Positions 6,729-21,962 of a stretch of DNA of 35,293 bases are shown piece by piece. The stretch is from positions 1 to 35,293 of the forward strand of contig DASRJF010000079.1 in NCBI GenBank assembly GCA_035649615.1, in the 5' to 3' direction. A program made the translations under genes and the position numbers. The notes beneath the pieces are model-generated. The model searched no databases. It had not been told where the DNA came from and was given only the letters and a program-made list of their open reading frames with translations. Position 1 is the first letter of the stretch; every line of letters starts with the position of its first letter. This stretch comes from Planctomycetota bacterium. Its GTDB lineage: Bacteria; Planctomycetota; MHYJ01; JACPRB01.

Positions 6729-7525
6729 GACGGGCTCGGCGGCGGGCTTCCCACCCAGTCGAGGTCTCCCCCCTGCGACACGGTCCGCCCGACCAGCGTG
6801 ACGAAGACGTCGTCCAGCGCCGCGGCGGGCCCGAGTCCCGCCTGGGCGCCCAATTCCGCCACGGTGCCGATGCCGCGGAGCCGGCCCTCGTGGATGACCG
6901 CGATCCGCGTGCAGAGCTTCTCCACCACTTCGAGCACGTGCGACGTGTAGAAGATCGTCAACCCCTTTGCGGTCAGTCCCTGGAGCACCTTCTGGATGAC
7001 CTGGGTCGAGATCGCGTCGATGCCGTTGAAGGGCTCGTCGAGGAAGAGCACCTCGGGCCCGTGGATCAGGGCGCAGGCGAGCGCCGCCTTCTTCCGCATT
7101 CCCAGCGAATAGTCGATGACGAGGCGCGCGCGGTCCGCGGGCTCCAGGTCCACGAGGTCGAGCAGCCGCCCGGCCCGCCGCTCCGCCTCCTCTTCCGCCA
7201 CGCCGTGCATGAGGCCGCTGAAGACGACGAGCTCCCAGCCGGTGAGGCGGTCGAACGTCTCGATCGTGTCGGGGAGGATGCCGATCCGCGCCTTGACCCC
7301 GAGCGGGTCCGCCGCGACATCGCGGCCGGCGACGAGGACCTGGCCCGACGTGGGCTTCATCAGGCCGCAGAGCATCTTGATCGTGGTCGTCTTCCCCGCG
7401 CCGTTCGGTCCGAGGAAGCCGAAGAACTCCCCGCGTCCGACCGTGAAGGAGACGCTGTCGACCGCGAGCTTCTCCTTGAATCGCTTGGTGAGATCGACGG
7501 CGGCGATGCGGGGGGCGTCGTTCAT
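6725..7525 (-). CDS. ABC transporter ATP-binding protein
   Basis: Walker A GPNGAGKTT. Signature-like YSLGMRKKAALACAL. Walker B VLFLDEPFNGID. H-loop YTSHVLE. The ATG overlaps the stop of the upstream kinase (ATGA at 7522-7525). Confidence 0.93.
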   Translation of the reverse strand: MNDAPRIAAVDLTKRFKEKLAVDSVSFTVGRGEFFGFLGPNGAGKTTTIKMLCGLMKPTSGQVLVAGRDVAADPLGVKARIGILPDTIETFDRLTGWELVVFSGLMHGVAEEEAERRAGRLLDLVDLEPADRARLVIDYSLGMRKKAALACALIHGPEVLFLDEPFNGIDAISTQVIQKVLQGLTAKGLTIFYTSHVLEVVEKLCTRIAVIHEGRLRGIGTVAELGAQAGLGPAAALDDVFVTLVGRTVSQGGDLDWVGSPPPSPS

Positions 7526-10500
7526 TTCGCGAGGGGCTCGTAGGCGTACCGGCGGAGGAGGCCGTCGTCACCGCCGACGAAGACCGACGCTCCGTCGGCG
7601 GCGCACAGGACCGACCGCGCGGCGGCGAAGCCCGTCGCGGGGGCCACCCGGGCGTCCCCCAGGCGGACGAGGAAGACGCGCCGGCCGGCGACGACCGCGG
7701 CGCCCGCCGCGGACACGCTCAGGCCGGTGGGGGATTCGGGAAGCGGGATGGAGCGTTCGACGCGCCCCCCGGCGGCGTCGATGACGAAGAGCTTCTTCGC
7801 CAAGGTGGCGACCAGGAGCTTCGCGCCGTCGGGCGTGAAGGAGAGCAGGGCGCCGTCTCCGACGGCTTCCCCGAGGTCGACGGGCCGCTTGGCGAACGTG
7901 TCGCGCGCCCACAGGTAGACCTGCGTGTCGTTCTTGCGCTCGTCGACCACGCTCTTGTTCCCCTCGCGCTTCCACGTCCGGTAGGTGCCTCCGCCGGTGG
8001 CGAAATAGCTTCCGGCCGGCGGCACGGCGATCGAGCCGTGGGCCTGGCCCCGGTCCGACGTCGGATTCCCCGCCCCGGATTTTTCAGTGTCGAGCACGTC
8101 GAGCGTGTAGACGTCGGTTCCGCCGCGATCGTCGCCCGGGGTCAGCCGGACGCGCAGGACCAGGAAGCCGTCGAAAGGGGCGAGGCGCGTCGCCGTGACC
8201 GGCACTTTCAATCCGGACGTTTCGACGTGGAGGTGGCGCGACTTCCCGTTCTCCCAGATGGCGACCTGCTCCGTCTCGGGCCCGTCGATTCCCGCGGGGC
8301 CCGTCAGTCCGGCGAGCCGCAGGCCGTCCTTCTCGATGAGCGCCGCGTAGAAGGGCTTGGGACCTCCCTTCACGGGGGGAGAATCGAGTTTCAGATCCTC
8401 CGCTCCCCAGACCGCGAACGACCCGAAACCGGCGCCGATGCCGACGACCCGGCCGTCCGCGGCGGCCGAGAGTTCATCGACGGGTCCTTTCGCGGCCGCC
8501 GCCGCCTTCTCGACGTAGAGATCGGCCCACAGGTCGCTCTCGAGATCTTTCAGTTCAGGCGCGCCTGGATTCTCGACCGCGGCCGCCCGCGCATGCCGGA
8601 CCGCCGCTGCGCGGTCGCCGCCCGCCAGGGCCGCCTTGGCCAGGCCGAGCGACCCCGGGCCCTTCAGCTCGTCGACGATCGCGCGGGCCTCCGCCGAATC
8701 GCCCCGGAGCGCGAGCGCCTTCTGCGCGGCGGCCAGGGCCTCGGCCCTCTTTCCATCCCCCTTGAAACGGCGCGCCTCGGCAAGGTGCTCGAGGAATCGG
8801 TTCTCGTCCCTGATTTTCCCGTGGCGGGCGCCGGAGGGCAGCAGCTTCTCGGCCTCCGCCAGGTATTTCCGCGCCTCGTCGAAGTTCCCCGCCCTGGCTT
8901 TCTCCACCGCCTTGTCGCATTCCGCCGCGTAGAGCGATCGCACTTCCTCCTCGGCCTTGCGGACGAGCGCTTCCGTCGCGGAGTCCGCCTTCAGCGAATA
9001 CGCCTCCTGGTACGCGGCCAGCGCCTCCGGCCACAGCTGCGACGCCTCGGCCTGTTTTCCGCGGGCCAGGGCGGCCTGCCACTTCCGACCCTGCTCGATG
9101 GAGCGCGAGAAGCCCGCCCGCTGGGCGGGGTCGACCCGTTCGAGCAGTTTTTCCGCCGCTTCCCAATCTCCCTGGTCGATCGCCAGCTGGATCTGCGGCA
9201 GGACGCCACCCGCCTGGTCCGCCTGCTTCTTCTTTTCATCCAGCTTGTCGCGAAGGGAGATCGCCTCCCCCTTCCGCTTCGGGCCGGAGAGGCGGATCGC
9301 CTGGTTGACGTCATTCAACGCCAGCGCGTACATGTCGTACGTCCCGTGATCGAGCGCCAGCCGGGCGGCGGCCAGGCGAAGGATGATCGCGGTCGGATGG
9401 AGGTCGATTCCCGCGCGCAATTTGTCCCACGCTCCCTGGAAATTCCGGTTCCGCACGAGCGCGTCCGCCTCTCCCGCTGCTTTCGCGGCCGATGATTCCT
9501 GCTCGCGAAGCTCGCGGGCGCGGCGCTCTCCGTCCTGCGCTTCGGAGGATTGGGGCTTCAAGTCGCGCGCCTTCTTGAAGAGCCTCTCGGCCTTGGCGAA
9601 GTCCTCGTCGGCCAGCGCGGCCTCGGCCTCTTTCATGATTCCGGCGAACTCGGTGCCCGGGGTGTCGACGACCGGAGGAGCCGGAGGGCTTCCCTTCGAG
9701 TTCTGGGCGAGCTTCTGGAGCAGGTAAATCCCTCCGATGCCCGCGGCGGTGACGAGCGCCAGCACGGCCGCCACCGCGATCAAGATCGGCGCCTTCGACT
9801 TCCGGGCCGGGATTGGGATCGAAGCCGCGGCCGCGGGGGCCGGCGGCGACGGCGAGGTGACCGCCGGGCGCGCGGGAGTCGAGGGAAGGACCGATGCCGC
9901 GTCGGAGCGAAGGGTGACTTCCGCCGCGGAGATCGAGGCGAGGTTCTGGAGCGAGGCGAGCGTGAATTCGGTGGTGGATTCCCCCCCGAGCGACTGCCGG
10001 CAGGCCTTGAGTCCCTCGCGCAGGATCCCGGCGTTCGCGTAGCGGGCCTCGGGCCGCTTCGCGAGACACGTGTCGATGAGCACGTCCGTGGGCCGGCTCA
10101 CGCTGGGATTGATCTGCCGCACCGGGACGTGCGGTTCGTCGCTCGTCTTCTTCAGGACATTGAGCACCGTCGTGCCCGTGAACGGGGCCGCGCCGGTCAG
10201 CAGGTTGTAGAGCGTCGCGCCCATGGCGAAGATGTCCGCCGACGGCCCCGCGCCTTTCGCGTTCTCGGCCTGCTCCGGCGCCATGTAGCCGGGCGTCCCC
10301 ATGGCCACGTTCGTGCCCGTCAGGCCGAGCGACAGGTCCTCCGAGTGCACCTTCGCCAGGCCGAGGTCCATGAGCTTCGCCTTCCGGTACTGCGGCTCGC
10401 CCTCCGCCGAGAGGGGGATGATGATGTTCTCGGGCTTGATGTCGCGGTGCACGAACCGCTCCTCGTGGGCGGCCGCGAGTCCGTCGCTGACCGTCAGGAG

Positions 10501-10947
10501 GAGGTCGAGGGCGTCCGCCTCCGGCAGCGGGCCCTGGCCCGATTTCACGCGGTCCTTGATGAGCCGGCCGGCGGTCTTGCCCGCCACGAACTCCATCACG
10601 AGATACCAGATCGCGGAGCCCGCCTTGGGGTCGCCGTCGACGTTGACGTCGAAGATGCGCACGAGGTTCGGGTGGTTCAATCGCGCGGCGACATTGGCTT
10701 CTCGCATGAAGTACTCGATCGCGTTGGGATCCTGGTCCGCGAGGTGGAAGGGCAGGATCTTCACGGCGACTTCGACGCCGAGCCGGGGGTGTTTCCCGAG
10801 ATAGACGGCGCCCATCCCGCCCTGCCCGAGCTTGCGGTACAGGGGGATTCCGCCCAGGGTCGGCCGTCCCGAGGGATCCCGGGGGGCGATGGCGAGCAGC
10901 CCGTCCTTGGCGAGATCCTTTTCGGACGCGTCGGGCATGGATTCCAT
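7522..10947 (-). CDS. Membrane Ser/Thr protein kinase STK1: Hanks kinase, one TM helix, TPR-like repeats, C-terminal beta-propeller-like domain
   Basis: GQGGMGAVYLG, VAVKIL, HRDIKPEN, DLG in place of DFG, GTPGYMAPEQ. TM helix APILIAVAAVLALVTAAGIGGIYLL. A long TPR-like helical region follows, then a Gly/Asp-rich beta-strand region at the C-terminus. An alternative start is the ATG at 10938. Confidence 0.9.
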   Translation of the reverse strand: MESMPDASEKDLAKDGLLAIAPRDPSGRPTLGGIPLYRKLGQGGMGAVYLGKHPRLGVEVAVKILPFHLADQDPNAIEYFMREANVAARLNHPNLVRIFDVNVDGDPKAGSAIWYLVMEFVAGKTAGRLIKDRVKSGQGPLPEADALDLLLTVSDGLAAAHEERFVHRDIKPENIIIPLSAEGEPQYRKAKLMDLGLAKVHSEDLSLGLTGTNVAMGTPGYMAPEQAENAKGAGPSADIFAMGATLYNLLTGAAPFTGTTVLNVLKKTSDEPHVPVRQINPSVSRPTDVLIDTCLAKRPEARYANAGILREGLKACRQSLGGESTTEFTLASLQNLASISAAEVTLRSDAASVLPSTPARPAVTSPSPPAPAAAASIPIPARKSKAPILIAVAAVLALVTAAGIGGIYLLQKLAQNSKGSPPAPPVVDTPGTEFAGIMKEAEAALADEDFAKAERLFKKARDLKPQSSEAQDGERRARELREQESSAAKAAGEADALVRNRNFQGAWDKLRAGIDLHPTAIILRLAAARLALDHGTYDMYALALNDVNQAIRLSGPKRKGEAISLRDKLDEKKKQADQAGGVLPQIQLAIDQGDWEAAEKLLERVDPAQRAGFSRSIEQGRKWQAALARGKQAEASQLWPEALAAYQEAYSLKADSATEALVRKAEEEVRSLYAAECDKAVEKARAGNFDEARKYLAEAEKLLPSGARHGKIRDENRFLEHLAEARRFKGDGKRAEALAAAQKALALRGDSAEARAIVDELKGPGSLGLAKAALAGGDRAAAVRHARAAAVENPGAPELKDLESDLWADLYVEKAAAAAKGPVDELSAAADGRVVGIGAGFGSFAVWGAEDLKLDSPPVKGGPKPFYAALIEKDGLRLAGLTGPAGIDGPETEQVAIWENGKSRHLHVETSGLKVPVTATRLAPFDGFLVLRVRLTPGDDRGGTDVYTLDVLDTEKSGAGNPTSDRGQAHGSIAVPPAGSYFATGGGTYRTWKREGNKSVVDERKNDTQVYLWARDTFAKRPVDLGEAVGDGALLSFTPDGAKLLVATLAKKLFVIDAAGGRVERSIPLPESPTGLSVSAAGAAVVAGRRVFLVRLGDARVAPATGFAAARSVLCAADGASVFVGGDDGLLRRYAYEPLAK

Positions 10948-11015: not shown

Positions 11016-14000
11016 TTGCCCATTGGGTATACTTGGTCGATGGAAGTGGGGAGCAAACCGCCGACGTCGGCCATCCACGGAGGAGCCACGGCTCCCGCCT
11101 CGCCCCCGGCCCGCGGGGGGGACGACCGGCTTCTCGGATCCCTGGCGGTCCGCGAGGGCTTCGTCTCCTCCCAGCAGGTCGAGGAGTGCGTGGCGCTCCA
11201 GAAATCGGCGGCGTCCCCCCGCAAGCTCGGCGAGATCCTCATCGAGAAGGGCTACATCACCGCGAAGCGGCTCATGGCCCTGCTGGACATCCAGAGCCGC
11301 CAGGTCCGGATCGTGGCGGCGGACCCGGCGCTCGGGGGGCTCTTCGGCCAGATCGCGCTCGACCTCGGCTTCGTGCCGGCGGACAAGATCGAGCAGGCCC
11401 TCCAGGAGCAGGCCTCGCTGTCGCGCACCGGGTCGCCCGCCATGCTGGGGCAGATCCTCCTGCGCAAGGGATGGCTCCAGACCGGGCAGTTCCTCGAGAT
11501 CCTCAAGGTCCAGCGGCGGACCATCCTGCGCTGCCCGGGCTGCGACACGTTTTACCGGTTCGAGGAGAAGGACCGCGGCTCGAAGTTCGCGTGCCGGCGC
11601 TGCGGGAACATCGTGCCGATCCCCGCGGCGGAGCCCGACGAACCGCGGGCCGGGGCGAGCCCGTCGGTCCCGGGGAAGCGCGCGGGAGAATCGGGGACCC
11701 AGTTCGGGCGGTACGCGATCCAGGAGGAGCTCGGCCGGGGAGGCATGGGGATCGTCTACAAGGCGCTGCACAAGGACCTGAACACCGTTTTCGCGCTCAA
11801 GATCCTGCGGGAGACGGAGATCTCGTCGGCGGAGGTCCTCGACCGGTTCAAGCGCGAGGCGCAGGCGGAGGCGCGGCTCCGCCACCCGAACATCGTCTCG
11901 ATCCACGATGCGGGCCAGGAGTCGGGCGTCCATTACCTCGCGATGGACTACATCGAGGGGGACCCGCTCACGACGCACCTCGCCCGGGGGTTCAAGATCC
12001 GCGACATGATCGCGCGCCTCGAGAAGGTCCTGCAGGCCGTCCACCACGCCCACGAGGAGGGGATCATCCACCGCGACCTCAAGCCCGCGAACATCATGAT
12101 CGACCTCGCGGGCGAGCCCCACGTCATGGATTTCGGGCTCGCCAAGTTCCTCGACGATCCGAAGCGCCTCATGCTGACGAAGGACGGGAGCTTCCTCGGC
12201 ACGCCCCATTACATGGCGCCGGAGCAGATCCGCGGCGAGGCGCGCCTCGTGGGCCCGCGCAGCGACATCTATTCGCTGGGGGTGATCCTCTACGAGATCC
12301 TGTGCGGCCGCACGCCCCACGTCGCGCCGAACAGCGTCGAGATCTTCCACAAGATCCTGACGGAGGAGCCGCCGCCGCCCCGGCTCTTCAACGCGCGCGT
12401 CCACCCCGACCTGCAGACGGTCTGCCTCAAGGCGATCGACAAGGACCCGGCGGTGCGGTACGCGACGGCCGGCGAGTTCGCGGACGACCTCCGGCGGTAT
12501 CTCGAGGGCGAGCCGATCCTGGCCCGGCCCCGGCCGTGGCCGATCCGCGCCCTCCGTCGCCTGCGGAAGAACAAGTCGACGGCCCTGGCCGCGATCTCGC
12601 TGTTCCTCTTCGCGATCTCCGGCGGCCTGGTCCTCTTCCTGATGTCGCGCGACGCGCGGGAGTTCGACCGGATCGCGAAGGAGGCGAAGGAGAGCTTCGA
12701 CGACCGGCAGTACGAGGAGGCCCTCCTGCACGCGCAGTCGGCGCTCCGCCTGCGGCCCGACGACAAGGCGATGGCCGAGTTCGTCGAGTGGGTCACGAAC
12801 CGGATCCGGACGCAGCGGGAGGAGTTCAGCAAGCGGCTCGTGCAGGACGAGAAGCGTCGGGAGGCCGAGCCCCGGATCGCCGCGGCGCGCATCATGCTGG
12901 AGATGATCCCGCGCCAGGCGGACCTCGACGGCGCGGGGGTCATGAAGCGGGCGGCGGAGGTCGAGAAGATCTTCGACGACGCGCTGAAGATCGTGACCGA
13001 CCACGAGGACGCGCTCCACGGGCGCGGCCGGGCCCGCATGCTGAAGGGGGACGCGGCCGGGGCGCTCGAGGATTTCGCGACGGTGTTGGAGAAGGCCCCG
13101 GGTCGCGTCGAGGCGCGCCAGGACGCGGCCCGCGTCCGGCTGTCGCTCGTGATCGAGGCGCGGCTGGTCGACCCGCGGCCCCCCGGCGTGCCTCCCGCCT
13201 CCGCCTTCGTGGAGGCCCGCAAGCGCGCGCACGCTGAATTTTCAGAGGTGTGGGCCAGCATGTCGCGCGACCCGGCGCGGGACGAATTCGCGCAGGCCGC
13301 GCTGCGGTGGCTCGATGGAAAGATCGCGGACGCGGCGGGCGGCCTGGACCGCTACGTCGGGTCGTACCCCGCGGATCCGGACGCGTGGCGGCTCCGCGCG
13401 ATGGCGCGGCTGGTCTCCGGGAATCCGGAGGGGGCGGAATCGGACCTGTCGATGGCGGCGCGGTATTCCCCGGGGGACGTCGTGACCCGGCTGGCGCGGG
13501 CGTGGGTTCGTCATGTCCGGGGGGACGCGGCCGGGGCCGACGCGGACCTCGCCGCGGTGGCGGCGCTGGCGCCGCAGAGTCCCGCGCGCGCGCTCCTGCG
13601 GGGCCGCATGCTGCTCGATCGGGGCGGGTTCCCGGCGGCGGCGGACGCGTTCGGCGCGGCGGCGGCCCTGGACCCCAAGTCACCCGGGGCGGCGCTGGGG
13701 ACCGGCTTGGCGCGCCTGCGGCGGGACGACCTGGAGGGTGCGCTGGCGCCGTTGCAGCGCGCGGCGGAGCTCGATGCCGCGGACGCCTGGCCGCTTCTGC
13801 TGCAGTCGGAGGTCCAGGAGCGACGGGGGCGCGCGCCGGAAGCGCTGGAGGCGTCGGAAGCGGCGGTCCGCCGGGCGCCGGACGCCGCGGTCGCGTACGA
13901 GCGGCGGGCGCGCGCGTGGGCGCGCCTGGAGAAGTTCCCCGAGGCGGTCAGGGACCTGGAGCGGGCCGTGAAGCTCGACCCCTCCTCCGCGGCGCGCCTG

Positions 14001-14048
14001 GACGCCGACCTGAAGGCGGCGCGGGCGCGGGTCTCCGGTCGGCCCTGA
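11016..14048 (+). CDS. Membrane Ser/Thr protein kinase STK2: two MshEN/T2SSE_N-like modules, zinc ribbon, Hanks kinase, TM helix, periplasmic TPR repeats
   Basis: The track start at 11016 is TTG. ATG 11040 is more likely because TATACT lies 6 nt upstream. Kinase motifs are GRGGMGIVYKA, FALKIL, HRDLKPAN, DFGLAK and GTPHYMAPEQ. The zinc ribbon is CPGC-x16-CRRC. The TM helix is ALAAISLFLFAISGGLVLFLM. The C-terminus has many TPR-like repeats. Confidence 0.9.
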   Translation: MPIGYTWSMEVGSKPPTSAIHGGATAPASPPARGGDDRLLGSLAVREGFVSSQQVEECVALQKSAASPRKLGEILIEKGYITAKRLMALLDIQSRQVRIVAADPALGGLFGQIALDLGFVPADKIEQALQEQASLSRTGSPAMLGQILLRKGWLQTGQFLEILKVQRRTILRCPGCDTFYRFEEKDRGSKFACRRCGNIVPIPAAEPDEPRAGASPSVPGKRAGESGTQFGRYAIQEELGRGGMGIVYKALHKDLNTVFALKILRETEISSAEVLDRFKREAQAEARLRHPNIVSIHDAGQESGVHYLAMDYIEGDPLTTHLARGFKIRDMIARLEKVLQAVHHAHEEGIIHRDLKPANIMIDLAGEPHVMDFGLAKFLDDPKRLMLTKDGSFLGTPHYMAPEQIRGEARLVGPRSDIYSLGVILYEILCGRTPHVAPNSVEIFHKILTEEPPPPRLFNARVHPDLQTVCLKAIDKDPAVRYATAGEFADDLRRYLEGEPILARPRPWPIRALRRLRKNKSTALAAISLFLFAISGGLVLFLMSRDAREFDRIAKEAKESFDDRQYEEALLHAQSALRLRPDDKAMAEFVEWVTNRIRTQREEFSKRLVQDEKRREAEPRIAAARIMLEMIPRQADLDGAGVMKRAAEVEKIFDDALKIVTDHEDALHGRGRARMLKGDAAGALEDFATVLEKAPGRVEARQDAARVRLSLVIEARLVDPRPPGVPPASAFVEARKRAHAEFSEVWASMSRDPARDEFAQAALRWLDGKIADAAGGLDRYVGSYPADPDAWRLRAMARLVSGNPEGAESDLSMAARYSPGDVVTRLARAWVRHVRGDAAGADADLAAVAALAPQSPARALLRGRMLLDRGGFPAAADAFGAAAALDPKSPGAALGTGLARLRRDDLEGALAPLQRAAELDAADAWPLLLQSEVQERRGRAPEALEASEAAVRRAPDAAVAYERRARAWARLEKFPEAVRDLERAVKLDPSSAARLDADLKAARARVSGRP
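11028..11033 (+). promoter_or_regulatory. -10 box candidate for STK2 (leaderless geometry)
   Basis: TATACT with exactly 6 nt before ATG 11040, so the predicted +1 is the A of the ATG. Confidence 0.35.
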
Positions 14049-14150: not shown

Positions 14151-17100
14151 CTAGAACTTCTTGTGGATGCGGGTGATGTCGCGGATCCGCGGGTCGCTGA
14201 CCGCCTGCGACACCGCTTCCTCGGCCTGGCGGGTTCCCTGCGCCGCCAGCGCGAGGACCGCCGCGGCGCGCGTCTCCTCCCCGAAGCCCTTCACGAGGCC
14301 GAAGAACCGGGGGCGCGTCTGCGCGATCTTCGTCAGGAGCGGCACCACGGCCGCGTTCGGGACCTGGCGGAAGTACGCCGAGCACAGGATCATGAGCGCC
14401 TCGTCCTGCGCCCCCTCGAGGATCTTCCCCACCTCGGCCTTCACCGCCTCGATCTTCATCTGCGCGGCCGCCTCGAGCCCCGAGTCCCTCAACTCCCTCG
14501 AGGAGTTCGCCAGCAGGCGGCGGATGATCCCCGCCACGACCGAGCGGGGCCAGTGCTCGGCCGACTTGAGAATGATCCCCCTCAGGTCCGGGCTGCCGTG
14601 CTCGGCCAGCATCGCCAGGTGCCCCGCGATCGGCGCCGTCAGGAGCGGTTCGATGACCTGCAGCACCCGCACCGTGCGCTCGATCGGGCCGTCCGGCGGG
14701 ATCAGGCGCATGATCTCCACCGCCAGCCGTTCCGCCGACGCGGACAGGGAGAGCGCGATCGCCCGGCGGATCCGCACGTCGGGCTCCTCCGCCAGGATGT
14801 CCACGAGCTTCTCCACGGTCGGGCCCCCGACCGCGAGGAGGATCGTGATGGCCGCGTTGCGGTCGTCCTCCGAGGGCTTCCTCACGGCCGCGCAGATCGC
14901 GTCGAACGCCATCGACTGCGGGATCAGAAGGAGCGCCGCCTCGCACACCGCCGCGACCTCGGGCGGCGTGACGGGGGAATCCGCCCGGCGCCGGAGCGTC
15001 CGGCCCGCGATCTCCGCCAGCTCCCCGAGGCATCCGGACGCCGCCGCCGCGGGGATCCAGACCGGAAGCAGGTTCACCGCGGCGCGCACGTGGAGCGGCT
15101 CCGTGTCCTCCGACAGTCTCATCTTGAGCGACGCGGCCGACCGCATGACCGCGAGCTTGCGCGTCCCCGGCGAGGCGAACGCGATCGACCGCGTCAGGAG
15201 GTTGAACGCCCGCGTCCGGTGCGAGAGGCTCGGATGGTGGAAGTGGGTTCCCAGCCGGTCCACGAGCTGCTCCGCGACGGGCCGTCCCGCGCCGTACGCG
15301 AGGGCCTCCACCAGGAGCGGGAACTGCCGCTCGAGGTCGGGCGTGAGGAACTCCTCGTTCGAGCGCGCCAGGTGCTCCCGCGCCCGGATCTCCGACCGCA
15401 CCGGCTTGGGCGGAGGGTGCAGCGGCATCTCCAGGTCGTCGGTCGCCCGCTCGTAGACGCGCGCGCCGAACGCGACGTGGCTGAATTGCGTGAAGAGCCG
15501 GTCCCCCGTGCCGGGCTGCATCGCCTCCTCCGGCGACAGCGAGAAGTAGCTGATGAGGGCCCGGATCTCGTCCTCCATCAGGCCCCGCCCGATGAGCACG
15601 CTCTTGATCTTGCGGTGGTCGATCTCCTTCGTCAGCCAGGCGCCCGCGTCGCTGAAGAACTTCGCGTCCGCCGGATGACCGTTGAGCACCAGTTCGGCGT
15701 CGGCCGTTCCCCACGCCACGGCCGGCACCTTGCGCAGGAGTTCCATGAAGGCGCGGACGCACTGGGCCGTCGTTTCTTCCACGAGCGTGTGGCCCGGCGG
15801 GTAGCGCTTCAGGTTGTCGACGCCCGCTTTGAGATACCGCATCGCGTCCCGCACCGCCGGCAGGTCGTCGGCGGGCACGGGCTTGTCCGCCGCTTCCAGG
15901 CGCACCCGGCGCATCGTTTCCCGGGCCTGGTACGCCTTCTGGACGATGTCGACCGCCTCCATGGCCTCGCGCGCCAGGAACCGCTCCCAGAAGTCGGGCG
16001 CCGCGCGCGCCCGGTCGAACGGCTCCGTGAAGTTCCGGACGATCGTCTCGATCCGCGGGGTCTCGAACGGGGGAAGAATGGTGATCGATTCAACGAGACG
16101 GTCGTCGAGGAGCCGTCCGAAATCCGCCGCGACCGGATTGTCGGTCTGGACGCCGTTGATCGCCGGCCCGTTCGTCGTGACGGAGAAGGTCAGCCCGGGG
16201 CCCCCGATCAGGAGCGCCTCGAGCGACCCGCGAAGCTGCGCGAGGAACGTGGTGCCGACCTGGCTCCACTGCGGATAGAGGCGCCCGATCTTCACCGCGG
16301 CCATGAAATGGCGCATCAGGGCCAGGCTTTGTTCGGTGGCCGACGCCGCCAGGTTCGTGGTCACCGCCGGAAGGCGGGGTCTCCGGGATCCCGCCTTGGC
16401 GGGCGGCTGGATGAGCGTCGCGCGCTTCTGGGCCACCTCGTCGAACTTCCGCGCCTTCGCCTCCCGGCCGGCCCGGTTGTAGTGGAACGCGATCTCGTCC
16501 GCGATGTGGTCGATGTCGCCGCCGTGGCGCGCCTCCTGCACGACGCCGACGCGGTCGTGGATCTCCTTCCGCTCCGTCGCGTCCGACGTCTGCAGCCGGA
16601 CGCGCCGCGCGTGGGCCGCCGGGAAGGAGAGGAGGTCCTGCCCCGACTCGGAGGGGACCAGCAGGCGGGTCCGCCGGACCTCGTCGATGAGGTCCAGCAT
16701 TTCCGTGTCGCCCTCGCCGAGGACTTCCTGCAGCAGCTCGGGATCGAACCGCGTGCCGATCACGGCCGCGCGCGTGAGCAGGCTGTTCGCGCCGGTCGGC
16801 AGCGCCTCGGCGACGGCGCGGATGGCGCCCGCGAGATCGCGCGAGAGGTCGGACGGCAGGAGCTCCGGCAGCGACCACCGGCCCGCCGACTGCTTCATCC
16901 GGCCGCGCAGCAGGAGGGAGCGGACGGTCTCCTCGAGGTAGAGCGGGTTGCCCTGCGACGCCACGATGAGCCGCGCCACCGATTCGTTGCTGATTTCCGC
17001 GTCGGGCAGGATGCCGCGGATCATCTGGCGCAGGTCCTCGGCAGGCAGGGGCAGCAGGTTGAGGCGCGCCGCGCCGGGCGCGAAGTCCCGCCAGAAGGCG

Positions 17101-18215
17101 CCCGAGGGCGTCATCTCCATTTCCGTCGACGGCCGGGCCGACCCGACGGCCACCAGGATCGGCAGCTTCCGGTTGATCGCCGCCCGGTACACCTCGAACG
17201 TGGCGCCGTCGGCGAATTCCACCTCGTCGATCAGCGCCAGCAGGGGGCCGATCCGCGACAGCTCATCGAAGAGCGCCCCGAAAGCCTCGAAGACCAGGCG
17301 GCCCGCGTTGCCGGGCGGCACCTGCTCCGCGGACCACTCCGGCGGAAGATCCCGCAGGACGATCGCCAGGGCCGCCCGATGCGGGGGGCTGATCCGCTCC
17401 ATGGCCTTGAGGACCATGGGGCGGTCATAGGCCATCAGCGTCTCGATTTGCTCCGCGAGCGTCGAATACGGAGCGGTGGAGCGCGACTCCTGGCTCGTGG
17501 CCGTCAGGAGGACGAACTTCTCGATCCGCGACCAGACGCCCAGCTCGTGCAGGAGCCGCGACTTGCCGACGCCGGAAGCGCCGGTGACGATCGCGACCGA
17601 CGGTCCGACGTTGCGGACGTCGCTCGCGAGCTGCCGCATGCGCGACTGCTCCCCGACCCGGCCCACGAGGATCGGGCACGGAAGTCCGCGGAAGATGCCG
17701 ATCTCCGCGAGCGCCACCGGGTCGAGCCGCCCCGCGACCGCGATCTTGTTGTGGCCCTGGTGCTTGGCGACCAGGAGCGCTCTCTCCGAAGCCTCGATCA
17801 CGGCGGCCGGGGACTTGCCGTCCATCGGATAGCTCGCCACCGACGCGCTGGCCGTCAGCGTGACCTGCCGGCCGCCTGCCGTGAAGGGCTTGTGGTCGAC
17901 CGCGCCCCGCAGTTTCTCCGCGGTGGCGGCTCCCTTGTCGCGGTCGGCGTCGGGAACGAGCAGGCAGAACGAGTCGCCGCCGTAGCGGAACAGGAGCGCC
18001 CCGTCGCCGGCGGCTTCCTTCAGGCGGGCCGCGACCTCCCGGAGCAGGGCGTCCAGCTTCGGGCGGTCGAGGCCCTCGGTCGTGGCGTTGAAGGCGTCGA
18101 GGTCGACCAGGACGAGCGCGCCCGCGTGGGCGGGCATCCGCTCGCGAAGGGCGGATAGAAGGCCCCGGCGGTTGCCGAGCCCGGTCGCGAGATCCTGATG
18201 TGAAGGGTCGACCAT
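14151..18215 (-). CDS. Degenerate GGDEF domain, P-loop (AAA_16/STAND-like) NTPase and long helical/HEAT-repeat region, 1354 aa
   Basis: The N-terminus reads DLATGLGNRRGL..LVLVDLDAFN..RYGGDSF (17967-17981). Walker A is GASGVGKS (17559-17582) and Walker B is LLALIDEVEFAD. The C-terminal third has HEAT-like repeats, e.g. EEPDVRIRRAIALSL, GSPDLRGIILKSA and DPRIRDITRI. Confidence 0.8.
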   Translation of the reverse strand: MVDPSHQDLATGLGNRRGLLSALRERMPAHAGALVLVDLDAFNATTEGLDRPKLDALLREVAARLKEAAGDGALLFRYGGDSFCLLVPDADRDKGAATAEKLRGAVDHKPFTAGGRQVTLTASASVASYPMDGKSPAAVIEASERALLVAKHQGHNKIAVAGRLDPVALAEIGIFRGLPCPILVGRVGEQSRMRQLASDVRNVGPSVAIVTGASGVGKSRLLHELGVWSRIEKFVLLTATSQESRSTAPYSTLAEQIETLMAYDRPMVLKAMERISPPHRAALAIVLRDLPPEWSAEQVPPGNAGRLVFEAFGALFDELSRIGPLLALIDEVEFADGATFEVYRAAINRKLPILVAVGSARPSTEMEMTPSGAFWRDFAPGAARLNLLPLPAEDLRQMIRGILPDAEISNESVARLIVASQGNPLYLEETVRSLLLRGRMKQSAGRWSLPELLPSDLSRDLAGAIRAVAEALPTGANSLLTRAAVIGTRFDPELLQEVLGEGDTEMLDLIDEVRRTRLLVPSESGQDLLSFPAAHARRVRLQTSDATERKEIHDRVGVVQEARHGGDIDHIADEIAFHYNRAGREAKARKFDEVAQKRATLIQPPAKAGSRRPRLPAVTTNLAASATEQSLALMRHFMAAVKIGRLYPQWSQVGTTFLAQLRGSLEALLIGGPGLTFSVTTNGPAINGVQTDNPVAADFGRLLDDRLVESITILPPFETPRIETIVRNFTEPFDRARAAPDFWERFLAREAMEAVDIVQKAYQARETMRRVRLEAADKPVPADDLPAVRDAMRYLKAGVDNLKRYPPGHTLVEETTAQCVRAFMELLRKVPAVAWGTADAELVLNGHPADAKFFSDAGAWLTKEIDHRKIKSVLIGRGLMEDEIRALISYFSLSPEEAMQPGTGDRLFTQFSHVAFGARVYERATDDLEMPLHPPPKPVRSEIRAREHLARSNEEFLTPDLERQFPLLVEALAYGAGRPVAEQLVDRLGTHFHHPSLSHRTRAFNLLTRSIAFASPGTRKLAVMRSAASLKMRLSEDTEPLHVRAAVNLLPVWIPAAAASGCLGELAEIAGRTLRRRADSPVTPPEVAAVCEAALLLIPQSMAFDAICAAVRKPSEDDRNAAITILLAVGGPTVEKLVDILAEEPDVRIRRAIALSLSASAERLAVEIMRLIPPDGPIERTVRVLQVIEPLLTAPIAGHLAMLAEHGSPDLRGIILKSAEHWPRSVVAGIIRRLLANSSRELRDSGLEAAAQMKIEAVKAEVGKILEGAQDEALMILCSAYFRQVPNAAVVPLLTKIAQTRPRFFGLVKGFGEETRAAAVLALAAQGTRQAEEAVSQAVSDPRIRDITRIHKKF

Positions 18216-18319: not shown

Positions 18320-20350
18320 TCAATTCCCCTCGTTGAGCTGGTGCAGGTACTCCGACGCCTGGCCTTCGAACTGGGTCCCCTTGAGCTCCCGAAGCAGGTC
18401 CCGGGCCATGGCCGGATAGTTCGCGGACATGGCGTACAGCGCGAGCGCGAACTTGTTCCCCGGCGAATCGAGCAGGGGAGGGAGCTTGTCGGTGCGGGTC
18501 AGGGCCATTTCGCGGATCCCCGTCGGCCCGAACTTGGACCACGGAGCGAAGTCCGACGGCTGCTGCCCGATGACGTAGATGACGCCGTCCGTCTGGGCCT
18601 TCGTGAGCGTCACATTCTTCGCCTGCGTCGTCCCGATCGTCAGCTTCAACAGGTACGGATTCGTCGCCAGGATGCGATCGATGAGCTGCTGCTTGAACAT
18701 CGCGATGTGCTCCCGGCGGCGCAGGATCTCGCTGAACTCGGGCCGCTTCAGCACGTCCGGGCCGAGCGAATCGACCAGGTCGGGACGGAATTCCTCCAGG
18801 TGTTTCATCGCCTTGTCCGTGGAGGTGCCGCTTTCGAACCAGCTCCGGATCCTCGACTGGAAGATGAACGTGGCCGAGGCCGCGATCAGCATCAGGAAGA
18901 CCACGAGCAGGATCGGGACCCACCGGCCCTTGCGCGATCCCAGCGACTCGGCGATGTCCTGCATCCCCGCCGGGAGCGTATTGACGGACGCCATCTTCGG
19001 AAGCGACCGCTTGCCTCCCCCCGAGACGTTGGCCAGCTCCTCGGCGAACGCGAGCGCGTTCTGGGGACGCTTCTGCGGATCCTTGGACAGGGACCGCATG
19101 CACAGCGCCTCCAATTCCGGGGGGACGACGAGCATCCGGCGCGAGGAGGCCGCCGCCGAGTCCCGGCCCCAGGCCAGCTCGCTCGGCGCCTTCGGTTTCT
19201 CATCCTGGACGCGCTTGAGGACGTCCATCACCTCGCCGACGAACGGCGGCTGCCCCGCCAGCATCTCGTAGAGGATCGACCCCAGGCCGTACACGTCGGT
19301 GCGCGGATCGAGCAGGTCGTTGCGCCCCGCCGCCTGCTCCGGCGCCATGTACGACGGCGTCCCGCTCACCACGCCCTGCTCGACCTTGATCTCGCCGAGC
19401 TGGCGGGCGAGGCCGAAGTCCAGGATGCAGGCGCGTCCCTCGCCCGTGACCATGATGTTCGCGGGCTTCAGGTCGCAATGGAGCAGCGGCGCCGGCCGCG
19501 TGTGCGCATAGTGGAGCGCCTGCGCCGTCTCGTAGAGGACGCCGATCCACTTCCGCGGATTCTCGTGGAAGGGCGAGACCTTGCCGGCCTTCTTGCACTC
19601 CTGGATCTCGTCGAGCATCGTCCGGCCGTCGAGGAACTCCATGCTGATGTAGTACTCGTCCTCGACCCGGCCGATGTCGTAGATCGACACGATGTTCGGA
19701 TGGCGGAGCTTGATCGCGTTGTGGGCCTCGTTGAGGAGGCTCGCGACCCGCGTGTGGCGGACCGCCTTGCCCGAGCCCTGCGGCGGAGGCTTGATCCGCT
19801 TGAGCGCCACGAGCTGGTTCAGGTAGACGTCCCACGCGCGGTAGATCGCGCCGATGCCCCCGCGCCCGATCTCGCCCAGGATGACGTACTTGCCGAACCG
19901 CTTGGAGGGATCCTTGCGCGCCTCGATGACATCGGGCGGGACCGGCGCGCTGCTGGCGACGATGATCATCGAGTCGATGCTGTCGTCCGGGCGGTCCGGC
20001 GACGGCTCGATGAGAATCGTCTCGCACTTCCCGCACTTGTAGCCGATGGCGTCCGGCCGCAAGTTGACCGTCACCATGATGTTGCAGCGCGTGCAGAGGA
20101 GGACCTTCTTGTTCTGCTCCGCGAGGGCGTCGCGGATGGCCTCCTTGGTCGTGTAGCCCTTCTGGAGCAGCAATTCGCCGATGCGCGGGACCACCGCCTG
20201 GCCCTGCATCGACTGCTGGATCTTCAGGCATTCGTCGAGGTGGACCACGGTGACGGACCCCATCCGGAGCAGGATCTGCCCCATGTCCGCCCGCGGAGGC
20301 GCGGACAGGGCGGGAGACGTCACCGGGCCGGGCGGAGGGGGAATAGCCAT
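18320..20350 (-). CDS. Membrane Ser/Thr protein kinase STK3: one MshEN/T2SSE_N-like module, zinc ribbon, non-RD Hanks kinase, TM helix, uncharacterised extracytoplasmic domain
   Basis: Track ORF 18320..20548. The real start is probably ATG 20350 (MAIPPPPGPV), because upstream of it the ORF is Arg/Cys-rich shadow. Motifs are GRGGIGAIYRA, VALKRI, HCDLKPAN (non-RD), DFGLAR and GTPSYMAPEQ. The zinc ribbon is CTRC-x16-CGKC. The TM helix is WVPILLVVFLMLIAASATFIF. Confidence 0.9.
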   Translation of the reverse strand: MAIPPPPGPVTSPALSAPPRADMGQILLRMGSVTVVHLDECLKIQQSMQGQAVVPRIGELLLQKGYTTKEAIRDALAEQNKKVLLCTRCNIMVTVNLRPDAIGYKCGKCETILIEPSPDRPDDSIDSMIIVASSAPVPPDVIEARKDPSKRFGKYVILGEIGRGGIGAIYRAWDVYLNQLVALKRIKPPPQGSGKAVRHTRVASLLNEAHNAIKLRHPNIVSIYDIGRVEDEYYISMEFLDGRTMLDEIQECKKAGKVSPFHENPRKWIGVLYETAQALHYAHTRPAPLLHCDLKPANIMVTGEGRACILDFGLARQLGEIKVEQGVVSGTPSYMAPEQAAGRNDLLDPRTDVYGLGSILYEMLAGQPPFVGEVMDVLKRVQDEKPKAPSELAWGRDSAAASSRRMLVVPPELEALCMRSLSKDPQKRPQNALAFAEELANVSGGGKRSLPKMASVNTLPAGMQDIAESLGSRKGRWVPILLVVFLMLIAASATFIFQSRIRSWFESGTSTDKAMKHLEEFRPDLVDSLGPDVLKRPEFSEILRRREHIAMFKQQLIDRILATNPYLLKLTIGTTQAKNVTLTKAQTDGVIYVIGQQPSDFAPWSKFGPTGIREMALTRTDKLPPLLDSPGNKFALALYAMSANYPAMARDLLRELKGTQFEGQASEYLHQLNEGN

Positions 20351-20426
20351 AAGCGGCCCCGGGTCGATCCCGGGGTCCGCATAGATAATACACAAATCGC
20401 GGTCGAGGAGGGAGCCCGGCGAGCGA

Positions 20427-21962
20427 CTACGGCGGCGCCCCGGCCAGGTCCGCAGGCAGGTGGGCCAGCCCGATCCGGGAGCCCCCGGCCGCCGCGAGCA
20501 GGCGTTCCACGACCACGCGCAGCTCCCGCACGTTGCCCGGCCAGGCATGGGATTCCAGGCGGCGCCGGACCTCGGGGTCGAGATGATCGTCGAGCGAACC
20601 GACGCCGCGGCCGCCGAGCGTCCTCAGGAAATGATGGAGGAGCGCCGGCAGATCGCCCATCCGATCGCGCAGCGGGGGCAGCGCGACCACGTCGCCGAAC
20701 CGGCGGTCGAAGCCCTGTCCGCTGGAGGCGCCCGCCAGGACCCGAACGTCCTCCTCCACCGACGGCTCTTCCACGAGGACGAGGAGCCGCTCGCGGATCG
20801 GTTCCGCCATCGTGTCGAGGCCGTCGACATACAGGGTGCCGCCGCGCGCCTCGGCGACGCGACCCCCGGCCCCGAACAAGGCCGCCTCGAGGAGGCCGGG
20901 CGCGACGGCCGCGCCGCGGACCGACACGAACGGTCCCACGGCGCGGGGTCCGAGGGTGTGAAGCCGCCGGGCCGCCCGCTCCTTCCCCGTGCCGGGCTCG
21001 CCCGTGAACAGGACCGGCGTGTCCGACGAGGCCGCGCGCTCGATGCTCGCGATGGCGGCGGACAGGGCGCCCGAGGTCACCAGCTCGCATCCCTCCGCCA
21101 GGCGTCCGGCGGCCGCGGCCACCGCCTCGCGGGCCCGCCGCATCCGGCGCGCGGTGGCGATCGCCCCGGCGCCGAAGGACGCGATCCACGCCGCGTAGCG
21201 AAGGTCGGCGCGCGTGAAGGCCGGCGGCGGGGCGTCGAGGTAGACGAACCCCAGCATGTCCCGGCCCGCCGCGAGGGGCGTCGCCAGCACCTCGACGGGC
21301 CGGCCCGACCACGTCCCTCCCCGCGCCGCGTCCGACGCGAGCACCGACTTGCGCTCCTTCCACACCTTGTGGAAGAGCACGTTCGAAAGCTGGATCTCGT
21401 CGTCCCCCGGGGGAGCGCGCCGCGCCGCGGGCTGGAGGCGGCCTCCTTCTGAAGCCAGCATGACAAAGCCCCGGCGCGCCTTCAGATCCGTCACCAGGCG
21501 GTCGAGGAGCATCCGGACCGCCGTGTCTTCCGGCTCCGCCCCGTGGAACGCGCGCGCGGCGTCGAGCGTGGAGGCCGTCCGCGCGGCATCGAGCGCCTCG
21601 TCGAACGGATCCTCGAGCGTTTCGGTGACGAGCGTCGCCCCGCCGGGCCGCGAGCGGGGCGAGCTGTCGCGCTCGGCCGTGGGATCGAAGACGAGCAGGT
21701 GCTCGCCGATCTCGATCTCGTCGTCGCGCGAGAGGTCCTTTTCGGCGACCTTCTGCCCGTTCACGAAGATCCCGTTGCGGCTCCCCGCATCCTGGATGGC
21801 GAACCCTGCGGAACGGCGCACGAATCGTGCGTGCACGCGGGAGATGTGGTTGCCTTCGATGCGGACGGCGCAAGAGACCGCACGGCCGACGGTGCTTCCG
21901 TCGTCGATTTCGAACGTCCGGCCGCGCAGCGGGCCTTCGACGGCGACGAGTCGGGTCGTCAT
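20427..21962 (-). CDS. FHA, GAF-like and sigma-54-interaction-type AAA+ protein with no DNA-binding domain
   Basis: Start at ATG 21962 (MTTRLVAVEGPLRGRTFEI), which overlaps the upstream stop (ATGA at 21959-21962). FHA motifs are GRAVSCAVRI..ISRVHARF..DAGSRNGIFVNG. AAA+ motifs are VLFTGEPGTGKE, GGTLYVDGLD and WPGNVRELR. The protein ends about 30 aa after the sensor-II region. Confidence 0.85.
   Translation of the reverse strand: MTTRLVAVEGPLRGRTFEIDDGSTVGRAVSCAVRIEGNHISRVHARFVRRSAGFAIQDAGSRNGIFVNGQKVAEKDLSRDDEIEIGEHLLVFDPTAERDSSPRSRPGGATLVTETLEDPFDEALDAARTASTLDAARAFHGAEPEDTAVRMLLDRLVTDLKARRGFVMLASEGGRLQPAARRAPPGDDEIQLSNVLFHKVWKERKSVLASDAARGGTWSGRPVEVLATPLAAGRDMLGFVYLDAPPPAFTRADLRYAAWIASFGAGAIATARRMRRAREAVAAAAGRLAEGCELVTSGALSAAIASIERAASSDTPVLFTGEPGTGKERAARRLHTLGPRAVGPFVSVRGAAVAPGLLEAALFGAGGRVAEARGGTLYVDGLDTMAEPIRERLLVLVEEPSVEEDVRVLAGASSGQGFDRRFGDVVALPPLRDRMGDLPALLHHFLRTLGGRGVGSLDDHLDPEVRRRLESHAWPGNVRELRVVVERLLAAAGGSRIGLAHLPADLAGAPP

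Follow-up and report, generated by a model that had tools for sequence, protein, structure and literature searches.

A planctomycete receptor-type Hanks kinase with a putative c-di-GMP-binding cassette of two MshEN_N-like modules and a zinc ribbon

The serine/threonine kinase gene STK2 lies in a 35,293-nucleotide stretch of Planctomycetota bacterium DNA (assembly GCA_035649615.1, contig DASRJF010000079.1, positions 1 to 35,293; hereafter the window). Sequence comparisons and structure models support STK2 as a bitopic receptor-type Hanks kinase whose cytoplasmic N-terminus carries a cassette of two modules of the MshEN_N type, named after the site at which Vibrio cholerae MshE (VcMshE) binds cyclic di-GMP (c-di-GMP), followed by a zinc ribbon. 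With a probability of roughly 0.6, each of these modules binds c-di-GMP in the manner of MshE and PilF and relays the signal to the kinase. The gene (11016..14048, forward strand) encodes 1010 residues when read from the listed TTG at 11016, and all residue numbers given here count from that codon. The true start is probably the ATG at 11040 (M9), because the sequence beginning there (MEVGSKPP...) aligns with the N-terminus (MESTGSPAP...) of the 84%-identical homologue P0039. The GC content at third codon positions of the open reading frame (ORF) was 0.95, typical of real genes in a window of about 70% GC, and look-up of the exact STK2 sequence returned no identical record.

From the N-terminus, STK2 consists of module 1 (11130..11294, residues 39-93), module 2 (11340..11513, residues 109-166), the ribbon CPGC-x16-CRRC with its four Cys (11532..11603, residues 173-196), a Hanks-type Ser/Thr kinase domain (11712..12455, residues 233-480; PF00069, E = 4e-52, 177.6 bits), a single transmembrane (TM) helix found by hydropathy scan (12576..12650, residues 521-545) and a tail (12651..14045) with tetratricopeptide repeats (TPR; Pfam matches at residues 665-995), all on the forward strand. 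The kinase motifs were all present (GRGGMG at 240, ALK with K262, HRDLKPAN at 352, DFG at 372 and APE at 401), and the cassette ends only about 35 residues ahead of the kinase N-lobe. The segment RALRRLRKNK directly precedes the TM helix, consistent with a cytoplasmic N-terminal side; given this helix and the cytoplasmic kinase, the tail would be extracytoplasmic. A preliminary description of this DNA had proposed MshEN motifs followed by CPGC-x16-CRRC, a kinase core, one TM helix and TPRs. This layout was borne out by the Pfam, motif and hydropathy scans, the Pkinase match among them, and the end coordinate that it gave for the N-terminal part, 11603, coincides with the end of CRRC (residue 196). 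The four segments that it had quoted as having exact MshEN spacing in two two-motif modules were also present letter for letter.

These four 24-residue motifs are LLGSLAVREGFVSSQQVEECVALQ (residues 39-62, 11130-11201) and KLGEILIEKGYITAKRLMALLDIQ (70-93, 11223-11294) in module 1, separated by 7 residues, and LFGQIALDLGFVPADKIEQALQEQ (109-132, 11340-11411) and MLGQILLRKGWLQTGQFLEILKVQ (143-166, 11442-11513) in module 2, separated by 10 residues. When position 1 was left free, all four fitted the pattern x-h-G-xx-hh-xx-G-hh-xxxx-h-xxx-h-xx-Q (h, hydrophobic), and no other match to it was found in the window when all six frames were searched. The pattern was expected only 0.0004 times per shuffled copy of the STK2 protein; four motifs in register are therefore far beyond chance. 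Both spacers are longer than the 5 residues of VcMshE, but a five-residue spacer is a soft criterion, because Geobacter PilB (5tsg) also has a 7-residue spacer.

Three independent lines of evidence support homology of the STK2 modules to MshEN_N. The NCBIfam model NF053729 ('c-di-GMP_motif, MshE-related'; cyclic di-GMP-binding domain, MshE-related; 53 positions, 38-bit cutoff) scored 55.6 bits on the full protein, 65.8 bits on the N-terminal fragment and 44.5 bits, still over the cutoff, on module 1 alone; the VcMshE control scored 84.3 bits. Weak matches of STK2 to the c-di-GMP-binding tail of NfrB were also seen in the NCBIfam scan. When PDB sequences were searched with phmmer, Thermus thermophilus PilF (6f8l) was matched at E = 6e-6 and VcMshE (5htl) at E = 1.4e-4, with module 1 aligned in register to VcMshE residues 9-59 across both motifs; Geobacter PilB, whose spacer has the same length as that of module 1, was found as well. 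An AlphaFold2 model of the cassette (residues 36-203, alignment of 28 sequences) had a mean predicted local distance difference test (pLDDT) score of 80 and showed two four-helix units and a four-stranded ribbon. In a Foldseek search over 350,542 PDB chains, its best match was the MshE-c-di-GMP complex 5htl_B (root-mean-square deviation (rmsd) 1.1 Å over 56 columns, 38% identity, probability 1.00), and c-di-GMP-bound PilF GSPII-B was matched at 1.7 Å over 58 columns. Module 2 modelled alone gave four helices with a pLDDT of 90.7, and again 5htl_B was the best match (TM-score 0.66, rmsd 1.9 Å over 59 columns, probability 0.97). The comparison with the MshE N-domain that the preliminary description had suggested thus placed the MshE-c-di-GMP complex on top for both models, and its central proposal, two tandem MshEN_N-like modules and a zinc ribbon on a receptor Hanks kinase, is backed by a curated profile, PDB sequence matches and the predicted fold.

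The lack of a match to the Pfam family PF05157 (T2SSE_N) had been named beforehand as a result that would refute the assignment. No PF05157 match was found in STK2 even at E ≤ 10 in the Pfam scan, but this is not a refutation, because the genuine 51-residue c-di-GMP site of VcMshE (residues 9-59), scanned as a control, had no PF05157 match either, and the argument is therefore invalid. The 53-residue MshEN_N site evidently lies outside what PF05157 covers. With both sequences missed by this family, STK2 is of the 'MshEN_N only' type, a category in Supplementary Table 4 of PMC5013675, and does not have a full MshEN domain. The VcMshE control gave only weak matches to FumaraseC_C (22.7 bits) and DUF4388 (20.2 bits), a signature that it shares with STK2 and its homologues.

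The same weak or sub-threshold matches to PF10415 (FumaraseC_C) and PF14332 (DUF4388/PatA_N), with no PF05157, recurred in MshEN_N sites and in the STK2 cassette, and stand-alone homologues of the cassette are tagged in public tables only with these two families. Fumarase/aspartase C-terminal domains also appeared among the fold matches of module 2. Matches to PF10415 and PF14332 may thus point to MshEN_N modules that have escaped annotation, and a related helical hairpin may lie within the PATAN domain. For annotators, PF05157 is blind to MshEN_N-only modules, and spurious FumaraseC_C/DUF4388 matches are their fingerprint.

The residues that matter most for binding in VcMshE were retained. 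Gly3 was present in every motif (G41, G72, G111 and G145), as was Gln24 (Q62, Q93, Q132 and Q166). In VcMshE, the backbone of Gly3 reads guanine O6/N7, substitution of G11 abolishes binding and Gln24 contacts the ribose-phosphate; Gly11 and the Leu cluster are critical, whereas substitutions of Arg9 change affinity less than 5-fold (PMC5013675). The critical Gly and Leu-cluster positions are kept in STK2, some of the cluster sites by conservative substitution: the cluster of L40 with L86/L90 is canonical, and those of L71 with V55/V59, F110 with F159/L163 and L144 with I125/L129 carry conservative substitutions. At position 1, motifs 1 to 4 have L39, K70, L109 and M143, so the reported replacement of Arg by L/K/L/M is correct, and an Arg stands one residue ahead of motifs 1 and 2 (R38 and R69). 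In PilF GSPII-B, position 1 is occupied by Lys and Leu, and the dissociation constant for c-di-GMP is 6 nM, 83-fold tighter than that of MshEN (PMC11731258). Neissner et al. widened the consensus to (R/K/L)LG and suggested that affinity is high where the first residue is hydrophobic (PMC11731258). L39, K70 and L109 fit this extended position-1 consensus; M143 is a large hydrophobic residue outside it. The concern that ligand binding is not assured when the Arg is missing is thus largely answered for module 1 (L/K) by the PilF precedent, which does not extend to the Met and Phe of module 2.

The cassette is not confined to STK2. The closest relatives of the N-terminal fragment were stand-alone proteins of about 172 residues, with four motifs and the ribbon, recorded as 'hypothetical protein'. 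When residues 1-515 were used as the query, many kinases covered more than 90% of it, including the N-terminal module, at identities from 84% down to about 35%; the named ones were labelled Planctomycetota or Planctomycetes. Among 1.84 billion cluster representatives, the cassette profile matched 9955 at E ≤ 1e-3, 2413 at E ≤ 1e-10 and 330 at E ≤ 1e-30. Among the best 150 representatives, 44 were Hanks-kinase fusions, 51 were stand-alone (≤260 residues) and 55 had C-terminal regions of other or unrecognised kinds, those that could be identified including a few histidine kinases, Amidase_2, HEAT, FGE-sulfatase, HlyD and FHA. The varied partners and stand-alone forms show that the cassette is a mobile N-terminal module, with the Hanks kinase as its commonest recognisable partner; it is widespread and mostly planctomycete. 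A TM helix directly followed the kinase in 38 of the 64 kinase fusions, with ectodomains of 20-790 residues, so that most of them share the receptor-type layout of STK2. The best-scoring representatives (P0159, P0161 and P0163) are kinases of 1741-1972 residues with an internal cassette at about residues 490-950 and 3-4 matched stretches, and multi-copy or internal cassettes therefore exist.

Across 122 diverse full-length cassettes, conservation in each of the four motifs was 92-100% for Gly3 and 89-100% for Gln24, whether the cassette was fused to a kinase, stood alone or had another partner. Since Gln24 has no obvious structural role beyond ligand contact, its conservation counts in favor of a ligand, and the near-invariance of the ligand-contact residues provides the best indirect case for continued nucleotide binding in the family. 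In the same set, position 1 of motifs 1 to 4 was L, P/K/R, L/I and R/P/L, respectively, and the motif 3 position-2 Phe was 89-97% conserved, giving the family consensus L-F/L-G, P/K/R-L-G, L-F-G and R/P/L-L-G. Position 20 held a Cys in about 70% of motif 1 sequences (C58 in STK2) and Cys or Ala in motif 3 (A128 in STK2); VcMshE has no Cys at this position in the aligned segment, and the residue may have a redox or metal-related role.

Close orthologues of STK2 were absent among GTDB species representatives, where the best match was 41% identical and covered the kinase only; the best ThiF match was 58% identical. The source appears to belong to a Planctomycetota-like lineage with sparse coverage among reference genomes. 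Searching with a degenerate DNA pattern that encodes GGLFGQIA gave mostly chance matches, but at least 7 true loci were retained after filtering with a hidden Markov model (HMM); all were metagenome-assembled genomes (MAGs) of Planctomycetota, and no cultured host was found among these confirmed loci.

The zinc ribbon belongs to the cassette, because the stand-alone homologues keep it. The STK2 ribbon scored 19-21 bits against PF13717 (Zn_ribbon_4), below the gathering score of 30.3, while its four Cys were at least 90% conserved across the cassette family. Its four short strands in the AlphaFold2 model matched the ZitP zinc finger (2nb9) and LysW in Foldseek. Many Hanks kinases of the PVC group (Planctomycetota/Verrucomicrobiota) start with a short and strongly conserved zinc knuckle, CPxCGxxLPxxAPQGLCPxC, directly before the kinase (loci L003-L081, e.g., L016, L027, L035 and L037). 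This very common knuckle is not accompanied by MshEN motifs and is distinct from the cassette ribbon.

If the modules work as those of MshE and PilF do, each four-helix bundle would bind one extended c-di-GMP molecule. Backbone amides, those of Gly3 and of the residue that follows it, would read the guanine Hoogsteen edge, the hydrophobic residues at positions 2 and 17/21 would form two clusters beneath the bases, the position-1 residue (L/K in module 1, L/M in module 2) would stack on top and Gln24 would hold the ribose-phosphate. Binding could then order or reorient the cassette. Passed on through the zinc ribbon and some 35 linker residues to the kinase N-lobe, the change would alter autophosphorylation or oligomerisation of the kinase, the direction being either activation or inhibition. 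Our analysis establishes the anatomy and motifs, the homology to MshEN_N, the predicted fold, the repeated occurrence of the fusion and the conservation at ligand-contact positions; we infer that c-di-GMP is the ligand, at one molecule per module, and that the kinase responds to it. In this way the kinase would integrate the cytoplasmic c-di-GMP level with any signal or binding partner of the periplasmic TPR domain, the latter acting as a second independent input or as a scaffold.

Several observations weigh against c-di-GMP binding by the STK2 cassette. Module 2, with its 10-residue spacer, scored 35.0 bits (E 9e-9) with NF053729 when taken alone, just under the 38-bit cutoff. Val, Ile or Phe occupy some of the position-17/21 sites, changes that are conservative but might still affect binding, as might two variants in module 2, the almost invariant position-2 Phe of motif 3 and the position-1 Met of motif 4. 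The Foldseek E-values were weak (0.16 for the cassette and 0.59 for module 2) owing to the small size of the domain (about 55 residues), and the fold evidence is therefore supportive but not decisive by itself. Nor did the neighbouring genes help. The GGDEF-AAA_16-HEAT protein encoded next to STK2 and convergent with it (14151-18215, reverse strand, 1354 residues) is degenerate, with GGDSF in place of the GGDEF signature and AGDG, no RxxD, at the I-site position, so that cyclase activity and a function as an I-site receptor are both improbable. Its gene was absent from the orthologous loci, where an M61 peptidase-PDZ gene and further kinases are shared instead. On these grounds the adjacent gene was rejected as a dedicated c-di-GMP source, and the genomic context, with a degenerate and non-conserved GGDEF neighbour, lends no specific support. 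Finally, MshEN-fold domains that have lost c-di-GMP binding and act as protein-binding platforms are known, such as XpsE and X. citri PilB-PilZ, the latter (7lkm) among our fold matches. The STK2 cassette might likewise have kept the fold and lost the nucleotide, serving the kinase as a platform for protein interaction, dimerisation or localisation like XpsE/GspE or the PilZ-binding X. citri PilB. The X. citri PilB(N)-PilZ complexes 7lkm and 7lko were both retrieved by the fold search, many MshEN copies have lost binding according to Wang et al. (PMC5013675), three of the four family motifs depart from the canonical RLG, the ribbon resembles the ZitP finger, itself a protein-interaction module, and for most fusion partners other than kinases no domain could be recognised. 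However, STK2 shows none of the substitutions that abolish binding in XpsE (G11V, R38G/G40L, L54H, L58C and Q61V), the retention of Gly3 and Gln24 at 89-100% in every motif of 122 members is hard to explain without a ligand, and PilF GSPII-B illustrates that a site with Lys or Leu at position 1 can have nanomolar affinity. We consider loss of nucleotide binding unlikely, if well worth keeping in mind.

A ligand other than c-di-GMP, such as 3'3'-cGAMP or c-di-AMP, or a different specificity for each module, appears improbable. It would account for the separately conserved signatures of the two modules (L-[F/L]-G / P-L-G versus L-F-G / R-L-G), and VcMshEN_N binds cGAMP detectably, although more weakly than c-di-GMP (PMC5013675). 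All characterised MshEN/GSPII domains prefer c-di-GMP, however, and the guanine-reading geometry of Gly3 is retained together with Gln24, with nothing positive for another ligand. That the motifs could be chance matches or a generic amphipathic-helix repeat unrelated to MshEN draws only on the missing PF05157 match and on Foldseek E-values above 0.1. Against it stand four in-register motifs where 0.0004 were expected, NF053729 scores over the cutoff, phmmer E-values of 6e-6 and 1.4e-4, MshE as the top structural match for both the cassette and the module 2 models, and the like behavior of the true VcMshE site in Pfam; with profile, register, PDB sequence, Pfam control and fold results in agreement, a chance origin is effectively refuted. 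Binding of c-di-GMP is the reading that we favor.

A second cassette was found in the window, so that two of its three kinases carry one. STK3 (ORF 18320-20548, reverse strand) has a Pkinase domain at residues 220-495 followed by a TM helix, and ahead of this domain a one-module cassette (20024..20287, reverse strand) made of DMGQILLRMGSVTVVHLDECLKIQ, a 10-residue spacer, RIGELLLQKGYTTKEAIRDALAEQ and then CTRC-x16-CGKC. Its motifs begin with DMGQILLRMGSV and RIGELLLQKGYT and end in IQ and EQ, respectively, the second having the canonical R-I-G. This cassette is paralogous to that of STK2 and scored 36.2 bits (E 3.7e-9) with NF053729, against the cutoff of 38. The strict motif regular expression missed it, inspection by eye revealing it instead, and counts of motif-bearing kinases obtained with that expression are therefore underestimates. 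A similar arrangement was observed at locus L180, in a Planctomycetota MAG (nzgw515, JAHFOZ010000207), where a 977-residue kinase with the full two-module cassette is followed on the same strand by an adjacent 956-residue kinase with a single module. L180 echoes STK2/STK3, a hint that kinases with two modules and kinases with one may repeatedly occur as pairs.

The STK3 start is probably internal (M67 at 20350 or M89 at 20284), because the ORF overlaps the FHA-GAF-sigma54 activator gene immediately upstream (20427-22073, reverse strand) by about 120 nucleotides. FHA domains bind phosphothreonine, and this activator is a plausible downstream target of the kinases of the cluster. The third kinase, STK1 (7522-10947, reverse strand, 1141 residues), is divergent from STK2 and has a kinase domain, a TM helix, TPRs and a probable beta-propeller-like tail, but no cassette. 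Elsewhere, one stand-alone homologue adjoins PilZ, GAF-HD-type and T2SSE ATPase genes, and others lie near response regulators or a PAS histidine kinase. No conserved kinase gene was found beside the stand-alone cassette proteins among the loci examined in a Rosetta-stone test.

The general idea behind this architecture is known, including the mobility of MshEN_N, its tandems, its combination with a kinase and a curated NCBI model. The novelty claimed in the preliminary description was accordingly overstated: MshEN_N is a promiscuous module, tandem copies have been reported, MshEN with Pkinase was listed in 2016 (PMC5013675) and STK2 belongs to a sizeable family. Its narrower statement that no example had been characterised held up, since the literature search found only the 2016 catalogue entry, and no experimentally characterised MshEN-Ser/Thr kinase was found in this incomplete search. 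We could not find, in the literature searched, a description of the cassette of two modules and a four-Cys ribbon, of its planctomycete spread or of its predominant fusion to receptor Hanks kinases. From the comparisons and models it is conceivable, although we hold this more in doubt than in belief, that the cassette is a previously undescribed, lineage-expanded c-di-GMP receptor that directly gates planctomycete Hanks receptor kinases, serves other outputs and also occurs as a stand-alone protein.

c-di-GMP signalling and Hanks-type Ser/Thr phosphorylation both rank among the largest signalling systems of bacteria, and an experimental direct link between them was not found in the literature searched. 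The cassette family offers testable candidates for such a link, with a short soluble cassette beside a complete kinase and point mutations of Gly3 and Gln24 as controls. If the reading is true, STK2 would be the first eukaryotic-like Ser/Thr kinase controlled by c-di-GMP, its two differently conserved modules could give cooperative, dual-affinity or even dual-ligand sensing, and c-di-GMP could act on cellular outputs mainly through the cassette in a phylum with scarce PilZ receptors. The cassette family also bears on an old puzzle noted by Wang et al., who list c-di-GMP enzymes in Isosphaera pallida and other planctomycetes and no receptor type but MshEN (PMC5013675). The sensory cassette is invisible in current annotation, because records read 'protein kinase' when it is fused and 'hypothetical protein' when it stands alone.

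Compared with known systems, the STK2 modules are closest in plan to MshEN_N of V. cholerae MshE (5HTL; PMC5013675), with two 24-residue motifs in a four-helix bundle and with Gly3, Gly10, the hydrophobic core, the position-17/21 cluster and Gln24 kept. Unlike MshE, STK2 has neither the MshEN_C/T2SSE_N1 subdomain nor a secretion ATPase; position 1 is L/K/L/M and not R/R, the spacers are 7 and 10 residues and not 5, and two copies of the module precede a zinc ribbon, with a Hanks kinase as the output. T. thermophilus PilF GSPII-B (8PE0/8PDK/9GL5; PMC11731258) has an Arg-free site with Lys and Leu at position 1, as in module 1, and offers no tested counterpart to the position-1 Met and position-2 Phe of module 2. 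It differs in that its C-terminal subdomain also contacts the ligand and in being part of a type IV pilus ATPase, whereas the STK2 bundle stands alone.

In concept, STK2 resembles Pkn1, CckA and ShkA, in which a c-di-GMP receptor module is wired directly to a protein kinase. CckA and ShkA are c-di-GMP-regulated histidine kinases that bind via sites unrelated to MshEN. Myxococcus xanthus Pkn1 is a Ser/Thr kinase with a PilZ domain that lacks the binding motifs (PMC8844925). Closer in architecture are the (MshEN_N)2 tandem proteins Cyanothece cce_1044, Geobacter Glov_2742 ((MshEN_N)2-CheX) and M. xanthus MXAN_7396 ((MshEN_N)2-REC-cyclase) (PMC5013675, Supplementary Table 4), which like STK2 have MshEN_N-only pairs without T2SSE_N1 as the N-terminal input to signalling outputs. 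None of these is listed with a four-Cys ribbon or a kinase output, however, and the STK2 family has its own consensus. The catalogue entry of 2016 is Stigmatella aurantiaca PKN11 (ADO72257; Pkinase-MshEN-UNK-REC), a predicted protein that also combines a Hanks kinase and an MshEN-type module on one polypeptide (PMC5013675). In PKN11, which is myxobacterial, the kinase comes first, the module is a full MshEN and not a duplicated MshEN_N, and there is no ribbon, TM helix or TPR ectodomain. Set against these systems, STK2 would hardly surprise a c-di-GMP specialist, yet it is a clean and testable candidate for the first c-di-GMP-controlled Hanks kinase.

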